A DNA stretch of 64,000 nt, from sequence record PV287714.1. One strand, written 5' to 3'. Shown here one piece after another: positions 3,270 to 63,629 of the stretch. A program made the position numbers and the translations under genes. The notes below the pieces were generated by a model. That model was not told where the DNA came from. It saw only the letters and a program-made list of their open reading frames with translations, and did no database searches. Every line of letters begins with the position of its first letter. Within the stretch, counting starts at the first letter, position 1. The DNA comes from Escherichia phage HMD-9.

Positions 3270-4274
3270 TTAACTTACCAATTCAATCCAAGTCGGACGA
3301 AGTACATCTTGTACCATTTTAACTAATTCCTTTTTAATCAAAGAAGGATTATCCGCTTGAGTTAGAGTAATACCTTCACGAGAAGTTTCTTCCAAAATAT
3401 CTTGAACAGTTAGCCCCATCACCTTTCCAAAATCTTTTGGACCAATTTCGCCAATTTTAGAAATAACATTATTTACTCGGTTCAGTGTAACGTAGCAAGC
3501 TAAAATTCCCAGCAATTTATTATCAGCTTCTGACAACTCAACTTTAGCTTTAATAGGCTTATCAGACTTTTTCTTTTCGCTAAATTTAGAGTTCTTGCAT
3601 TTAATAGCGACACGATTGCCATTAGGCATCCAAGAAGGATAACAAGGTTTCAATACATATCCTTCAGCAGTAAATACTTCGCCTTTTGCTTCGGCATTCC
3701 AAACGCATTTATTTGCATCAACTAATCCAGCATGGTCTACTGTAAAATTATAATCCTGGACGACAGAATCTAAATCATTTGGCAATTTAATAAGTTCTTC
3801 AAATTTACCGCGACCTAAAAGTGGAGCCATTTTAAATTTAAATGTATTACAGAATGATTCCATCATATAATCATCGACATAAGTCACATCACCACTTTCC
3901 GTAGTAACAATAATGTCAAATACATAAAAATCTTTATCGCCATAATCGACATTCTTCTGAATGCCAGGTCCAGCGAATTCGCCAAAAACTTGATAAGATA
4001 CAACTGCTGAAGTTTCCATAATATCTTGCACTGCTTTAATGGAATCAGCGTAATTCTTTAAAATAATTTCATACCCAAAGAAATCTTCAGCAGGAAGAAT
4101 CGGTCCAGTACGTTTAGCACAAGTTGCTTTATCGCGTTCAATAATCAGTGAGAAATTTGTGCCATGAATCTTTTCACGAGCTACCCATTCGCCGCCAGTC
4201 AATCCTAAACTGTAAAGTTTTTCAATGAATTTAGAATTGTAATGATTTTCAAGACTGCTATACTTTTTAAACAT
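3270..4274 (-). CDS. rnlB: RNA ligase 2
   Basis: 334 aa; nucleotidyltransferase lysine motif KIHGTN; T4 position after 24. Confidence 0.93.
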
Positions 4275-4758: not shown

Positions 4759-4832
4759 TCCCGTATTATTTGGTTTGTGCCATTATATACATCAATCTCA
4801 AGATGTGTTTTGTATGCTTTAAAACGAAGAAA

Positions 4833-4848
4833 GGGGCCGAAGCCCCTT
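4833..4848 (-). terminator. stem-loop/terminator downstream of hoc
   Basis: AGGGGC-CGAA-GCCCCT GNRA-loop hairpin immediately after hoc stop. Confidence 0.45.
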
Positions 4849-20199: not shown

Positions 20200-20204
20200 A
20201 AATT

Positions 20205-20222
20205 AAAGGCCCGAAGGCCTTT
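20205..20222 (-). terminator. stem-loop/terminator upstream of alt
   Basis: AAAGGCC-CGAA-GGCCTTT, T-rich tail on minus strand. Confidence 0.45.
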
Positions 20223-20409
20223 AATAATCTAATGGTAAGAGAGTACGATATATTTCAAACTTTGGCCCTTTTTCATAGGCATCAAATGTTTCTGAAAATT
20301 TATTATAAGCATATGCATCTACAAATTCGAGAATGATTTGTGATACAGAAGTAGAAACATCTCCACCTTCTTTTTGAGCAACGACAATTGTTTCTAAGTA
20401 AGCTTTCAT
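20221..20409 (-). CDS. hypothetical protein
   Basis: 62 aa ORF overlapping gene 30 stop. Confidence 0.7.
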   Translation of the reverse strand: MKAYLETIVVAQKEGGDVSTSVSQIILEFVDAYAYNKFSETFDAYEKGPKFEIYRTLLPLDY

Positions 20410-24133: not shown

Positions 24134-24174
24134 AGTATTTTCCTCAGTAAGGGGCCGAAGCCCCTCATTTTATT

Positions 24175-24941: not shown

Positions 24942-25028
24942 TTTATTCTCCTTTGTTTGTGTAAGATAATACTATCACAAAGGAACTATACTGTAAACAA
25001 CTTTATGCAATCTTTGGAAAATAAAAAA

Positions 25029-25046
25029 GGACTCCCGAAGGAGTCC
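25029..25046 (-). terminator. rho-independent terminator
   Basis: GGACTCC-CGAA-GGAGTCC then TTTTTTAT on minus strand. Confidence 0.5.
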
Positions 25047-25051
25047 TCAAC

Positions 25052-28635: not shown

Positions 28636-28636
<1 letters not shown>
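28439..28636 (-). CDS. hypothetical protein (cd.5 position)
   Basis: 65 aa ORF. Confidence 0.65.

Positions 28637-29854
<1,218 letters not shown>

Positions 29855-31289: not shown

Positions 31290-31290
<1 letters not shown>
31232..31290 (-). promoter_or_regulatory. early-type promoter plus leader inverted repeat (copy 2 of repeated cassette)
   Basis: Near-identical to 17706-17760; GTTTACA..TACAGTAGT; inverted repeat overlaps SD of alc. Confidence 0.45.
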
Positions 31291-32877
<1,587 letters not shown>

Positions 32878-57783: not shown

Positions 57784-59108
57784 TTGATTTCCTCTAAATC
57801 TTTGGTGTATTCTGTAACTACATCAGTAGTTTTCCAGTATTCGTTTTCTTCTTTTTTAGCTTTAGCTTCTTCAGCAAGTTTCTTTGCTTCATCGGAAGTC
57901 ATATGAAAAATGTTCATTCCAACTAGTTTATCAACATAAGAAGAATACATATCAATTTTAGAAAGTTCTTCAGTCAGTTCTTTGCGAGTTTTACCTTGCA
58001 CAACAATTTCACCTGAAATCACTTTCTTAATAAAATGTGCCTTGGCAAAGGCTAAACGAAATGTTGATTCAGTTTCTTTGATTTTGTTATCAATTCGTTT
58101 TTGGACATAAGTTTTACGAACTTCAACGAAGTCTTTGATTAAATCAACTACGTTATCGTAAACTTGTAGTTTTCCTTTCTCATTAATAACCGTAATATTC
58201 TGGGAACGACGCTCAATCAACCCAAAGTCTTTCATAATTTTTGCATGGCGTTCTTCTTCGTTATCGCTCAAAGAATATTCTTTGCGGAATTTAACTTTGA
58301 AGCCAAAACCGTGCTCACCACAAGCATCATCCCACGTAATGAAGCCTTTATCTTCAAGCGGGTCTAAGATTTTACTCACATAAGTTTCACGATCATACTT
58401 ATACGGAATCTCAGTGATATTCATTTGAGTTCGTGAAGTAAACTTATATGTTCCACGAATTTCATATTGTCCATCAATTTCAACGACTTCACCACGAAAT
58501 TCTGGGAATTCTACCTTCGGTTTAGTTACTTTCTTTCCTTGAAGAGCTTGTAGTACAGCTTTCTTGACAGAAGAAACACTATGAGGAAGAATGTAAGTTG
58601 CATAACCAGTTGCAATACCGGAAACGCCATTAAGAAGAACAGTAGGAATAATAGGCAAATAGAAAGCAGGCGGAATGTGTTCTTTATCTTGATGTACCGG
58701 AGCATATTCAGTATCTTTATATACGTTATAGAAATTTTTACTTACACGAGCAAAAATATAACGACTTGCTGCTGCCTTTTGGACAGTACGAGAACCAAAG
58801 TTTCCTTGACCATCTAATAGAGGAAAGTTATTATTCCAAGTGTTAGCCATCAAAGCACCTGCGTCTTGCGCAGAGTTTTCACCATGATGATATCCAAGGT
58901 CCGCTACACCACCTGCGATAGAAGCGAGTTTGTGAAACTTATCTTTATTTCCTCGTGCCAAATCAAGAGCTCGAGCAATAACAAATCGTTGAACTGGCTT
59001 AAATCCATCAATCATATTTGGAATAGCACGATTTTCAACCGTGTACATAGCATAAGCCAATGCTTCATTATCAATGATACTTTTTAAATCGCGATTATTC
59101 AGTTGCAT
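57780..59108 (-). CDS. 52: topoisomerase II medium subunit gp52
   Basis: 442 aa, position. Confidence 0.94.
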   Translation of the reverse strand: MQLNNRDLKSIIDNEALAYAMYTVENRAIPNMIDGFKPVQRFVIARALDLARGNKDKFHKLASIAGGVADLGYHHGENSAQDAGALMANTWNNNFPLLDGQGNFGSRTVQKAAASRYIFARVSKNFYNVYKDTEYAPVHQDKEHIPPAFYLPIIPTVLLNGVSGIATGYATYILPHSVSSVKKAVLQALQGKKVTKPKVEFPEFRGEVVEIDGQYEIRGTYKFTSRTQMNITEIPYKYDRETYVSKILDPLEDKGFITWDDACGEHGFGFKVKFRKEYSLSDNEEERHAKIMKDFGLIERRSQNITVINEKGKLQVYDNVVDLIKDFVEVRKTYVQKRIDNKIKETESTFRLAFAKAHFIKKVISGEIVVQGKTRKELTEELSKIDMYSSYVDKLVGMNIFHMTSDEAKKLAEEAKAKKEENEYWKTTDVVTEYTKDLEEIK

Positions 59109-59112
59109 AAAT

Positions 59113-59253
59113 TTACCATACTAGTGAATGTAGTGCCATAATAACATCAGAAATGAAAAGCACGACTTGAATTAATCCGAACATTATTCCGTAATATAAT
59201 GCTACCAATAAAGCAGCAAGGGCTAATGAATAGCCCAAGATTTTCTTAATCAT
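59113..59253 (-). CDS. small hydrophobic protein (46 aa), not in ORF track
   Basis: MIKKILGYSLALAALLVALYYG...; ends 5 nt before gene 52 ATG. Confidence 0.5.
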   Translation of the reverse strand: MIKKILGYSLALAALLVALYYGIMFGLIQVVLFISDVIMALHSLVW

Positions 59254-59404
59254 TAGTAGATAACAACACAAATGTTAAATATGCACACATACCCTGAGCT
59301 AAAGCTTGCGAAAACACACTGCTAGCATCGATACAGATAGTTAAAACACATGCTACTATCCAACAAATAAATGAAATAACTCCTAATAATTTCGCAATAT
59401 TCAT
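59246..59404 (-). CDS. small membrane protein, Ac-like (52 aa)
   Basis: ATG at 59404 with SD GGAG; single TMD; T4 ac position. Confidence 0.6.
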   Translation of the reverse strand: MNIAKLLGVISFICWIVACVLTICIDASSVFSQALAQGMCAYLTFVLLSTND

Positions 59405-59414
59405 AATATTCTCC

Positions 59415-59570
59415 TCAACTATTTTTAGAACCAATGTACGCGAATAATGATAAAATCGCTAATACGCCCTGAGCTGATGCTTGCAAAAATACTGAAGTTT
59501 CTCCAGTTATTACTGTTCCGATGCATAAAAAGAACCAACAGAAAAAGGCTATACCGTGAACAAATTTCAT
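59415..59570 (-). CDS. small membrane protein, paralogue of the Ac-like protein (51 aa), not in track
   Basis: Shares F.CW..C..T...SVF.QA.AQG pattern with the adjacent ORF. Confidence 0.55.
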   Translation of the reverse strand: MKFVHGIAFFCWFFLCIGTVITGETSVFLQASAQGVLAILSLFAYIGSKNS

Positions 59571-59577
59571 ATTTTCC

Positions 59578-59658
59578 TCACTGGCGTCCGAAGACGCCTT
59601 TAGTTTTAAGATTGTTACGATAGAACTGCATCACGTGTTCGTTATGGAAATTGCTCAT
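59578..59658 (-). CDS. stp: Stp peptide (26 aa), anti-restriction / PrrC-activating peptide
   Basis: Translates to [26 protein letters not shown], matching T4 Stp as I recall it. Confidence 0.85.
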
Positions 59659-60101
59659 TAATATGCCTGCAAAACAAATTTAAAATTATCAGCCAACATA
59701 CGGTTCATTTCTTCAAGTGTTTGATACTCAGAATGATGATTACGAGTAAACGCCAAAGCTAACTGACCTTTTCCAAATCCTGTCGTCAGAGGTTTCATCT
59801 TAGAAGCAGGCAGATAAAATACTGTGTATACCATATTGTTATTTGCAATAGTACGCGCAAGCTGAGACCGACGTTGACGAATATGACTTAGAACTGCACT
59901 GAACCCTTGCTTAGAACGCTGATTACCTACATAAAATCGTGCAGATACGCATGAACCATCGAATTCACTTACTAAAAAGTAAAATCCAGGTTTAGATAAA
60001 ATATCTTTATGCGGAGTTCCAAAAACCCATTCACCGCCCTTGATTGTACCAATAACAGTAGCGCCTGCATTATTCAGATCAGTAACAGTCATGTATTTCA
60101 T
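59658..60101 (-). CDS. ndd: nucleoid disruption protein Ndd
   Basis: About 147 aa from [13 protein letters not shown] with SD GAGG; track start 60149 is upstream. Confidence 0.85.
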
Positions 60102-60161
60102 ATTAATTTCCTCTAAATTATTTTCTACTCCAAGGCCGCATGTATTCATGCGGCCATTAAA

Positions 60162-60377
60162 TTAATCGTCGCAGTCGACGCTCAATTCCCAAAACTCTTC
60201 TACGGTATAAGTTTCAGTATCATTTTCAATACAGAAACGTTCATTACTGTTATTTGCTAAAGTAGCATTAACTGTCGGTTTCTCGCTAGTGCTCTTAAGA
60301 GGTGAAATACGAATTAACTGATCACCGTTATCTAAACAGAAAATTTCACCAACTTTTACATCTTTAAAACTTTTCAT
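60162..60377 (-). CDS. hypothetical protein (ndd.1 position)
   Basis: 71 aa ORF. Confidence 0.65.
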   Translation of the reverse strand: MKSFKDVKVGEIFCLDNGDQLIRISPLKSTSEKPTVNATLANNSNERFCIENDTETYTVEEFWELSVDCDD

Positions 60378-60385
60378 AATTCACC

Positions 60386-60493
60386 TCAAGGAGTATAAAA
60401 TCCAAACGCAGTTGTTGACCATCCCATCCAATATGGGAAATTTGCACCAATGTAAAACATAAGAATATAAAACCAAATGTTTAGTAAATTCAT
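60386..60493 (-). CDS. tiny hydrophobic peptide (35 aa), not in track
   Basis: ATGA coupling to upstream ORF; MNLLNIWFYILMFYIG... Confidence 0.45.
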   Translation of the reverse strand: MNLLNIWFYILMFYIGANFPYWMGWSTTAFGFYTP

Positions 60494-60690
60494 CATTTTA
60501 CACCATTCCAAATTGTTTCAACTACGGATTTTAAACCATTTTGATGAATATCCATTCCGACTACCGCCATCAAATAGATTCCAACTACAACTGAACCTAA
60601 GGCAAAAATCAGCATGAAAATGAATAAAGCCGGAAAAATATTATCGAAAAACCATTCAATAAATGTAAAAGCACTACGTTTACGCTTCAT
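60493..60690 (-). CDS. small membrane protein (65 aa)
   Basis: ATG 60690 with SD GAGGA; TM segment FPALFIFMLIFALGSVVVGIYLMAVV. Confidence 0.6.
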   Translation of the reverse strand: MKRKRSAFTFIEWFFDNIFPALFIFMLIFALGSVVVGIYLMAVVGMDIHQNGLKSVVETIWNGVK

Positions 60691-60697
60691 ATTTTCC

Positions 60698-60811
60698 TCA
60701 CATAAATCCAAAGTAAGCGTTTAATACATCAATCATTAAAACGATTGGGAATATACTCAAAACTACTAGTATTATAACTACATTCCATATAGCTTTAACA
60801 ATCTTTTTCAT
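60698..60811 (-). CDS. small membrane peptide (37 aa)
   Basis: ATG 60811 with SD GGAGG just downstream of an early promoter; track ORF is an upstream extension. Confidence 0.5.
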   Translation of the reverse strand: MKKIVKAIWNVVIILVVLSIFPIVLMIDVLNAYFGFM

Positions 60812-60839
60812 TTTCTGTTCCTCCGTAGTTGATAGGGTA

Positions 60840-60869
60840 ATAATACCACAGAGGAACAGTCTTGTAAAC
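60840..60869 (-). promoter_or_regulatory. T4 early-type promoter
   Basis: Minus strand GTTTACA - ~18 nt - TATTAT. Confidence 0.4.
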
Positions 60870-60876
60870 AACTTTT

Positions 60877-60975
60877 TTAAAAATATTCGTAATAAATGTG
60901 AATACCAATCACTACTGCCGAAACTTGTGCAACCCACCACGCACAAGCAATAAGTACAGAATTCAAAATTTTCAT
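60877..60975 (-). CDS. tiny hydrophobic peptide (32 aa), not in track
   Basis: MKILNSVLIACAWWVAQVSAVVIGIH...; coupled to neighbours. Confidence 0.4.
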   Translation of the reverse strand: MKILNSVLIACAWWVAQVSAVVIGIHIYYEYF

Positions 60976-61058
60976 AATAACCTCATCACAAAAGTAAATG
61001 TTAAACAAATTAATGGAATACTAATTAACCAAACAAAACACCACCATAATGAACTCAT
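60972..61058 (-). CDS. tiny hydrophobic peptide (28 aa), not in track
   Basis: MSSLWWCFVWLISIPLICLTFTFVMRLL; ATGA overlaps on both sides. Confidence 0.4.
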   Translation of the reverse strand: MSSLWWCFVWLISIPLICLTFTFVMRLL

Positions 61059-61327
61059 AGTTCAATCTCAGCGATTTTCATTTCATTACTATTAATAGCC
61101 GCTTTAAGACTATCTGAAAGAATTACATCCCAGTGGTCATTCATATGACCATTAACTAAACGTGTAATTTCTTCGGGAGTTGAAAAATAAGGCGTATCAG
61201 ACTCCCAGTGCGATAGTCCCAAGCGAGTATAAATCATACCTTCATCATCGATAGAATATTCAACTGACACAAACTCATCAGTTATTTTATGTTTAGCGTA
61301 ATAAAATTTAAATTTCATTTTACTCAA
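61055..61327 (-). CDS. hypothetical protein
   Basis: 90 aa ORF. Confidence 0.65.
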   Translation of the reverse strand: MSKMKFKFYYAKHKITDEFVSVEYSIDDEGMIYTRLGLSHWESDTPYFSTPEEITRLVNGHMNDHWDVILSDSLKAAINSNEMKIAEIEL

Positions 61328-61542
61328 TAATCCGCTAAAAGATCGACAATTGCATCACGAAGACACTTATTCGCAATACGTTTAAGAGCAATTTCAGTTT
61401 CTGGAGCATTTTGAATAATCATTGAATTCAATTCAGCCTCAGCAAACTGAAGTTCTTTAACTAATTCAGCTTTATATTTTCCTTGCCCTTTCTTAGCTTT
61501 TGCTCGTTTTAATTCAGCTGTAGTAAACATTTTATTCTCCAA
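61324..61542 (-). CDS. hypothetical protein
   Basis: 72 aa ORF; early promoter (61564-61594) upstream. Confidence 0.65.
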   Translation of the reverse strand: MENKMFTTAELKRAKAKKGQGKYKAELVKELQFAEAELNSMIIQNAPETEIALKRIANKCLRDAIVDLLADY

Positions 61543-61563
61543 ATCCGTATCAGTTGATAGTTG

Positions 61564-61594
61564 TATAGTACCACAGTCCTTGTGGTATGTAAAC
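61564..61594 (-). promoter_or_regulatory. T4 early-type promoter
   Basis: Minus strand A/T-rich UP, GTTTACA, spacer, TACTAT; near-identical to motA promoter. Confidence 0.4.
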
Positions 61595-61611
61595 TGTTTT
61601 GTGAAAATTTT

Positions 61612-62169
61612 TTAAATGGAAAGATACCATCCGTTGTAGTTGCTTTTTCTTACAACTTTACGAAGGTCTTCTCTATCACCGATGAACTTCGGAGTGTACT
61701 GGATGACACCTGGATGAATTTCTTTAGTGTTGAATATAATTATACAGTCAGCGACTTGGTGATTCAGAATGGGCCCTAGATTTATTCCAGAACCATATGG
61801 ATACTCTCCGCTGCATCCTGTTGTTACCGAAATCCAACGTGAGTCAGTTTGATGGGTTTTGACTTCTACACGAAGTCCGCAGTATCTTGGGTGCGCCAAT
61901 ACATCCCACGCATATGTATACGGGTCATTAACATCCTCTTGGCCTTTGTTAACATACCCGCTTAGCCAATCTGCTACAAAAAACTCTGCGTACACCGCGA
62001 TACGGCATCTTTCGATAACTTCTGCTTTATCCTGATTTGGATTTTGTTTTAAAGAGTATCTTGCTGTATCAGCAATTTTGACCTTCATTTCACTAGTCAA
62101 GTCACTGTTCGATAGGGTAAATGTCGGAATCTGAAATAGTCTCTGTAAACCCGGATTCGTTTTCTGCAT
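61612..62169 (-). CDS. denB: endonuclease IV (DenB)
   Basis: 185 aa; size and position match T4 denB. Confidence 0.75.
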   Translation of the reverse strand: MQKTNPGLQRLFQIPTFTLSNSDLTSEMKVKIADTARYSLKQNPNQDKAEVIERCRIAVYAEFFVADWLSGYVNKGQEDVNDPYTYAWDVLAHPRYCGLRVEVKTHQTDSRWISVTTGCSGEYPYGSGINLGPILNHQVADCIIIFNTKEIHPGVIQYTPKFIGDREDLRKVVRKSNYNGWYLSI

Positions 62170-62431
62170 TTAGACTTTCCTTTTTACCGCTGAGATAAGC
62201 GTTATATACTTTAAGAGTACCATAATAAATTCTGTCATTTTCATCTAAAGACTCACGGTCGAGTTCATCGAGTTCCTTTTTATCCATGACTATAACATCA
62301 TTACAGTAAAGAAACCCAAGTTTTTCGTGACCAAACTCAAATTTATTGCAGTACACAATATTAGCGTGATGATTTCCGTGTAGATTAATCTCTTTTATGT
62401 CGGAATCACCGATATTCATACAATAAATCAT
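62102..62431 (-). CDS. hypothetical protein overlapping denB 5' end
   Basis: 109 aa ORF; start uncertain. Confidence 0.55.
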   Translation of the reverse strand: MIYCMNIGDSDIKEINLHGNHHANIVYCNKFEFGHEKLGFLYCNDVIVMDKKELDELDRESLDENDRIYYGTLKVYNAYLSGKKESLNAENESGFTETISDSDIYPIEQ

Positions 62432-62450
62432 AATTTCCCTTAAAACAAAA

Positions 62451-62462
62451 GGGCCGAAGCCC
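62451..62462 (-). terminator. GNRA-tetraloop stem-loop/terminator
   Basis: GGGC-CGAA-GCCC flanked by A-run and T-run. Confidence 0.45.
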
Positions 62463-62467
62463 TTATT

Positions 62468-62662
62468 TTATTTGAATTGTGCAATTCTTTTCTCTAAACA
62501 ATCTGCGTAAGATTTCATTGAGATAAATTGTGAAAGCAACAGTTCTTGTTCAACTTCATTAATCGTTATAAACTTTGTGCTTTCTAAAAATTTGCTCAGT
62601 GCATTAATTTTGAGCATTAATTGATCGTATTCTTCTTTTACTCGTGCTTGATAACCTAACAT
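62468..62662 (-). CDS. hypothetical protein
   Basis: 64 aa ORF between rIIB and denB. Confidence 0.65.
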   Translation of the reverse strand: MLGYQARVKEEYDQLMLKINALSKFLESTKFITINEVEQELLLSQFISMKSYADCLEKRIAQFK

Positions 62663-62690
62663 AATTTTCCTTAGTTAAGGGCCGAAGCCC

Positions 62691-63629
62691 TTATTTGAAT
62701 TGTTCAGTAACGTCTTCAACTACTTCGTATTGGCAGGTACGCATTTTAGCATCGTTGTAATCAATCGGAATTGATACTACATCGCGAGGATGTACTTTAA
62801 CTTTTACAACTCGGCTGGTTGAACTGCCAAAGTGACGAATATAAGATTTAGAACACACATGCAGACCACGAGAACAAGTTTGTGTATCATCGTCATTCAC
62901 ACGAGTACGTGGCATTTTAACTACTTTGCCAGGACTGTTATCAAAAGTATTTGAATGACAGTCAAAGTAATTACTGCGAACTACTTTCCAAGCATAGAAG
63001 TAACCGTCTTCTGTAATTTCAATATCGTTTGCTACCAAGAAATCAAAGAGTCGAGATACCGCTTTTTGGCTCGGGTTTTCCAACAGATTTTCCAAGAACG
63101 GAAAATAAAATTCAAAGTTTTCACCTTTTTCCATCGAATCGAGAATACGATCAACTAAACCAGACCGCAATTCAATATTTTGATAGAACAAGCTTCCACC
63201 TTCAATTCGAACATCACCGGAAATATATTTTTCAACAGCGCGACGAACGTTAATTTTTTGCGCTGCTTCTTCCAATTTATCTGCAACAAGCAGATTAAGA
63301 ATTTCCTGGAAGTTTGAATGAGTATTAGGAGTTGCGTTATAAGTTACACCGTCAACAGTAATTGAAATGAATTTTTTAGATGCATTCCAAATAATGTCAG
63401 ATTTAGCAACTGGAGCAATAGCTGCATCACTCTTAACTGTAACTGTAATGTCACCGCTAATGGTAACTTTGGAGCGTTTAGCTTCTTCAGCATTTTTCAA
63501 AACACGACGGATTGTGTCAACCGATACATCTTTCCAATAAGCCAATTCCTGTTGGGTATAATTACCGCTTGAATACAGTTTAACAATTTCAGCTTGTTCG
63601 TTTTTGGTCAGGCATTTAATATTGTACAT
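62691..63629 (-). CDS. rIIB: RIIB protein
   Basis: 312 aa, T4 rIIB size and position. Confidence 0.9.
   Translation of the reverse strand: MYNIKCLTKNEQAEIVKLYSSGNYTQQELAYWKDVSVDTIRRVLKNAEEAKRSKVTISGDITVTVKSDAAIAPVAKSDIIWNASKKFISITVDGVTYNATPNTHSNFQEILNLLVADKLEEAAQKINVRRAVEKYISGDVRIEGGSLFYQNIELRSGLVDRILDSMEKGENFEFYFPFLENLLENPSQKAVSRLFDFLVANDIEITEDGYFYAWKVVRSNYFDCHSNTFDNSPGKVVKMPRTRVNDDDTQTCSRGLHVCSKSYIRHFGSSTSRVVKVKVHPRDVVSIPIDYNDAKMRTCQYEVVEDVTEQFK

Follow-up and report, generated by a model that had tools for sequence, protein, structure and literature searches.

The minus-strand reading frame at positions 59578..59658 of the window, by which we mean the whole analyzed stretch of 64,000 nucleotides from Escherichia phage HMD-9 (PV287714.1), is almost certainly the orthologue of bacteriophage T4 stp, here in a T4-type phage (Tequatrovirus) other than T4 itself. 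The frame comprises 26 codons from ATG to TGA, beginning with ATG AGC AAT and finishing with CAG TGA. It had been proposed as stp in a sequence-only reading of the window that was to be abandoned if alignment revealed no homology to Stp. As evidenced by the alignment, the encoded peptide is identical to T4 Stp (NP_049878; gene at NC_000866 165505-165585) in 26 of 26 residues. This includes residues 1-18 and, within them, the mutation-sensitive stretch 4-14. At the DNA level the gene differs from T4 stp by one synonymous base, codon 2 being AGC here and AGT in T4. In the T4 reference genome NP_049878 bears the annotation "activator of host PrrC lysyl-tRNA endonuclease", and the profile searches agree with this assignment. 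Pfam PF08133, the anticodon nuclease activator family, is matched with 75.3 bits (E 2e-21, cut-off 25) over residues 1-26 of its 26-position profile and thus in full length, and PHROG 6763 is matched with an E value of 4e-21.

Note that a short open reading frame by itself is no evidence for stp, as 46 ORFs of at least 20 amino acids overlap the region 58000-61500. What speaks for a real gene is its homology, its position and its substitution pattern. In a tblastn search of a phage collection with the Stp peptide 817 records were matched, 422 of them at an identity of at least 99%, and judged by such comparisons the homology of stp is far beyond chance. In IMG/VR, scanning for an exact DNA pattern gave 10 loci, and a search of solved structures with Stp gave no match even at E 10. 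For the window as such, the best whole-DNA matches reach ~97% over a local 1.4 kb and ~95% over 24 kb.

The position between ndd and the ac-like genes, as claimed in the sequence-only reading, is borne out by the neighborhood. The gene order is ndd, stp, ac-like, ac, 52.1 and 52, and apart from the additional ac-like paralogue T4 and RB27 have the same order. Upstream lies ndd, the gene for the nucleoid disruption protein (59658..60101, minus strand; Pfam PF06591, 286 bits), which encodes 147 amino acids when read from the ATG at 60101. This codon follows a GAGG motif and is most likely the start, rather than the in-frame upstream ATG at 60149. The stop codon TAA of ndd and the ATG of stp share an A (TAATG at 59658), an overlap also found in T4 that suggests that the translation of stp is coupled to that of ndd. 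At its other end the TGA of stp falls within the GAGG that serves as ribosome-binding site for the following gene (TGAGGAAAATATG; start at 59570), and this junction of stop codon and ribosome-binding site is likewise shared with T4. Two ac-like genes follow downstream. The first of them encodes an extra ac-like small membrane protein of 51 amino acids (59415..59570, minus strand; PHROG 2501) that is 43% identical to ac. It is not present at this position in T4 or RB27, alignments showing an insertion relative to T4, where ac follows stp directly. Two acridine-resistance genes are listed in many related records. The second gene (59246..59404, minus strand) is the orthologue of ac (acridine resistance) according to alignment and the annotation of T4 and RB27, and its product starts with MNIAKLLGV as in T4. 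A promoter scan of 59000-62500 yielded 16 sites, with 15.7 expected from shuffled sequence and thus no excess, so that the transcription unit of stp is taken over from T4.

The last six codons of stp also make a perfect C(UUCG)G hairpin with a stem of 6 bp, GGCGUC-UUCG-GACGCC (59583..59598, minus strand; -11.5 kcal/mol by folding), at a distance of 3 bases from the junction with the following ribosome-binding site. It is the only element that stands out in the 161-nt stp region, for which no global fold beyond that of shuffled sequences was found (z -0.64). Read on the plus strand, the hairpin obtains a terminator-like score. UUCG hairpins are a known feature of T4, and those with a stem of at least 5 bp occur 13 times in the window, the one in stp included, with 0.6 expected from shuffles. 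Examples are found at 1887-1906 on the plus strand and at 4831-4848, 20202-20225, 24150-24165, 25028-25047, 62449-62464 and 62676-62693 on the minus strand. Several hairpins of this kind are immediately followed by a (T)GAGGAAAAT ribosome-binding site and form with it a recurring module of hairpin plus site.

In all T4-type copies of stp that were examined the hairpin is invariant, and in VR7 it is present with UUUG as the loop. T2-type copies lack it, as do the siphovirus copies that still encode GVFGK. As the latter hold this peptide with codons that are unable to pair, the hairpin was rejected as the sole cause of the conserved C-terminus of Stp. Among T-even copies none of the five third-codon positions in the stem varies, compared with 7 of 17 degenerate codons elsewhere, numbers that we estimate to be too small for significance. 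We raise as a tentative idea, which we consider rather unlikely to be correct, that the last six codons might have a second role, either as an element for mRNA stability or processing or as a recombination junction at which stp and ac-like cassettes are shuffled. If true, such a role would explain why the DNA of a dispensable C-terminal tail does not change among T4-type phages, and also why T2-type phages have another tail instead and some relatives possess it in two copies.

The T2-type copies of stp end in different tails, NFGILGFKK in T2 (locus L003, 601-684) and NFGILGSKNS in TOPO13 (locus L004, 601-687). In TOPO13 the final 18 bases of the tail and what follows them are identical to the 3' end of the ac-like paralogue in our window (59415-59450), and T2 has a closely similar variant of this tail. 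The arrangement suggests a deletion by which stp was fused to the tail of the ac-like gene. In two IMG/VR contigs of ~170.5 kb (L017 and L019) an intact stp of the VR7 type is followed by an ac-like gene and this by a second stp. This second copy is of the T4 type, with its ATG changed to CGG and with hairpin and ribosome-binding site intact, and is probably a pseudogene.

More distant homologues of Stp are found in the siphoviruses Rtp (gp6), K1ind2 and P818, with scores of 41-67 bits that all lie above the PF08133 cut-off. They have in common with the peptide of HMD-9 a core HNEHVMQ(F/L)YR(N/H)NLK and a G-x-(F/L)-G-K tail, but they comprise 25-30 residues, reside in unrelated genome contexts and have 3' ends without the hairpin. 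The K1ind2 copy is not annotated. In the whole genomes of Rtp and K1ind2, siphoviruses from the Drexlerviridae and Guernseyvirinae, neither RNA ligase 1 nor RNA ligase 2 was detectable, and of polynucleotide kinase-phosphatase only a homologue of the phosphatase domain was found, which in Rtp is located two genes upstream of stp.

Besides the trigger, the sequence-only reading had named three genes for RNA-end repair, and their coordinates hold, all on the minus strand, with domains and T4 matches in agreement. The gene pseT (28636..29541; Pfam PF13671 and PF25109) encodes polynucleotide 5'-kinase/3'-phosphatase (Pnkp), the end-healing enzyme, with an N-terminal P-loop kinase and a C-terminal HAD phosphatase domain with its DxDxT motif. 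It matches the structure of T4 Pnkp (1ltq) with an E value of 6e-171, and both the P-loop GCPGSGKS and the phosphatase motif FDLDGT (DxDGT) are present. The sealing enzyme, RNA ligase 1 (Rnl1), is the product of rnlA, or gene 63 (31290..32414; Pfam PF09511 and PF20819). The mechanically derived ORF reaches a GTG at 32450; when the ATG at 32414 is taken as the start, the product has 374 residues that align end to end with T4 Rnl1 (2c5u) with 5 substitutions, an identity of ~99%. The lysine of the KxDG motif (KEDG, within TKEDGS) and the C-terminal domain for tRNA specificity are retained. RNA ligase 2 (Rnl2), a nick-sealing ligase for duplex RNA, is encoded by rnlB, or 24.1 (3270..4274; Pfam PF09414 and PF18043). 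It is ~98.5% identical to T4 Rnl2 (2hvq) and has the motif EKIHGT with Lys35 of KIHG (KxHG) as well as the Rnl2 C-terminal domain. As far as can be read from the sequence, the genes for Pnkp, Rnl1 and Rnl2 are full length and intact, with the catalytic motifs in place, and the claim that trigger and repair genes occur together in the window is confirmed by homology for stp, pseT and rnlA. Scanning the window for tRNA genes gave no hit, which places the phage tRNA cluster outside of it.

The kinase domain of Pnkp (residues 1 to ~160) is nearly identical to that of T4, whereas the phosphatase domain (~160-301) is clearly more diverged and contains a one-residue indel, with catalytic motifs and conserved blocks intact, so that the protein looks mosaic. 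The ORF starts with MMKK here and with MKK in T4.

Since the peptide is identical to the one tested experimentally in T4, we infer that Stp of HMD-9 would inhibit type IC restriction and activate PrrC. The mechanism as reviewed for T4 (PMC3014915), with which later reviews including PMC12409349 agree, would then apply here as follows, every biochemical step being transferred from T4 work. The gene is probably translated by coupling to ndd, with the stop codon of the latter overlapping the start, to give the 26-residue peptide. By homology to T4, the peptide would bind the type IC restriction-modification complexes of the host and block DNA cleavage. In hosts with the prr locus this binding would unmask the nuclease PrrC that is held in the type IC complex, and PrrC would cut tRNA-Lys in the anticodon loop. 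The ends of the cut tRNA would finally be healed by Pnkp and sealed by Rnl1, as is the case for PrrC-cut tRNA-Lys in T4 (PMC3014915). Note that the activity assigned to Stp in the sequence-only reading, an inhibition of type I restriction, is correct for type IC and too broad as a general statement. Stp is reported to relieve restriction by EcoprrI and EcoR124I, both of type IC, but to be without effect on the type IA systems EcoKI and EcoBI (PMC3014915).

An abundance of short ORFs in AT-rich DNA, as in the 46 counted here within 3.5 kb, raises the question whether the frame arose by chance and the segment is conserved as a non-coding RNA or spacer, for instance as the module of hairpin and ribosome-binding site that serves the next gene. 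The strong and conserved hairpin at the 3' end of stp fits such an explanation, but over its full length the region shows no more folding than shuffled sequence, and the siphovirus copies retain the GVFGK peptide where the hairpin is missing. Between stp of HMD-9 and the K1ind2 copy 17 bases differ over 25 codons, and these amount to 13 synonymous and 2 non-synonymous codon changes; the copies in Rtp, P818 and VR7 show the same synonymous-heavy tendency. Unrelated phage families thus hold the peptide and swap the codons, and since the homologues differ mainly at synonymous sites, the pattern indicates that selection acts on the Stp peptide and not merely on the DNA. The genetics of T4 also speak against a chance ORF. 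Loss-of-function mutations in stp map to this very reading frame, where they cluster at residues 4-14, and a removal of the last eight codons lowers the activity only moderately (PMC3014915). A chance or non-coding origin of the frame is in effect already refuted, and we assign next to no probability to it.

With stp accepted as a genuine gene, two further alternatives concern its partners and its purpose. The sequence-only reading had counted pseT, rnlA and rnlB together as the phage route of tRNA repair. The part of Pnkp and Rnl1 is established, and all three genes are indeed there and intact. Rnl2 moreover is a true RNA ligase for which a role in the repair of host-inflicted RNA damage has been proposed (PMC3884662). 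On the other hand, T4 single mutants in pnk or rnl1 are restricted on prr+ hosts despite the presence of Rnl2 (PMC3014915), and Rnl2 is consequently no substitute for Rnl1. Nicks in duplex RNA are the preferred substrate of the enzyme, and the Shuman laboratory calls its role in biology unknown (PMC3884662), so that rnlB is not to be counted in the route. We therefore regard a single route comprising all three enzymes as very improbable and retain the pair of Pnkp and Rnl1. It is also conceivable that Stp is kept mainly for another target, be it a defense system or a process of the phage itself, and that type IC inhibition and the triggering of PrrC are incidental. The DNA of T-even phages is already base-modified and hence protected. 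The gain from a peptide against type IC systems is for this reason not obvious, and yet Stp is invariant in hundreds of T-even genomes. Nevertheless, no data indicate another target of Stp. Its homologues furthermore occur in phages of the Drexlerviridae and Guernseyvirinae, for which we know of no comparable DNA modification and in which an anti-restriction peptide would make sense. We hold the alternative of another main target to be a distinctly unlikely one, and the inhibition of type IC systems with its activation of PrrC stays the preferred reading for Stp.

In being an inhibitor of restriction that is sensed by a second-line abortive-infection system, Stp resembles Ocr of phage T7 and further anti-restriction proteins by which back-up defenses such as PARIS and Ronin are set off. 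The two differ in their means. Ocr, which has no sequence relationship to Stp, is said to mimic DNA and to block type I as well as type III restriction-modification, whereas Stp is a peptide of 26 residues that is specific to type IC.

That stp had appeared in the sequence-only reading as an unlisted gene is a matter of annotation, as gene callers skip very short ORFs. From the tblastn search of phage records we sampled, at even spacing, 28 records whose full-length peptide is identical, and found Stp named in 3 of them (~1 in 9), whereas the majority carry no coding feature at the place of stp. About 7 others carry a "hypothetical protein", which perhaps is not the stp ORF, and in most of the remaining records the overlapping annotation is that of ndd only.

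The combination of stp with the repair genes is the canonical T4 arrangement, known from textbooks and annotated in the T4 reference genome. Descriptions of the circuit of Stp, PrrC, Pnkp and Rnl1 in T4 go back to the 1980s-90s, and nothing in it is new here. For T4-like phages the consequence is that automated surveys of anti-defense genes under-count stp unless small ORFs are searched by homology, and the gene that is missed in this way belongs to a founding example of layered phage defense and counter-defense.
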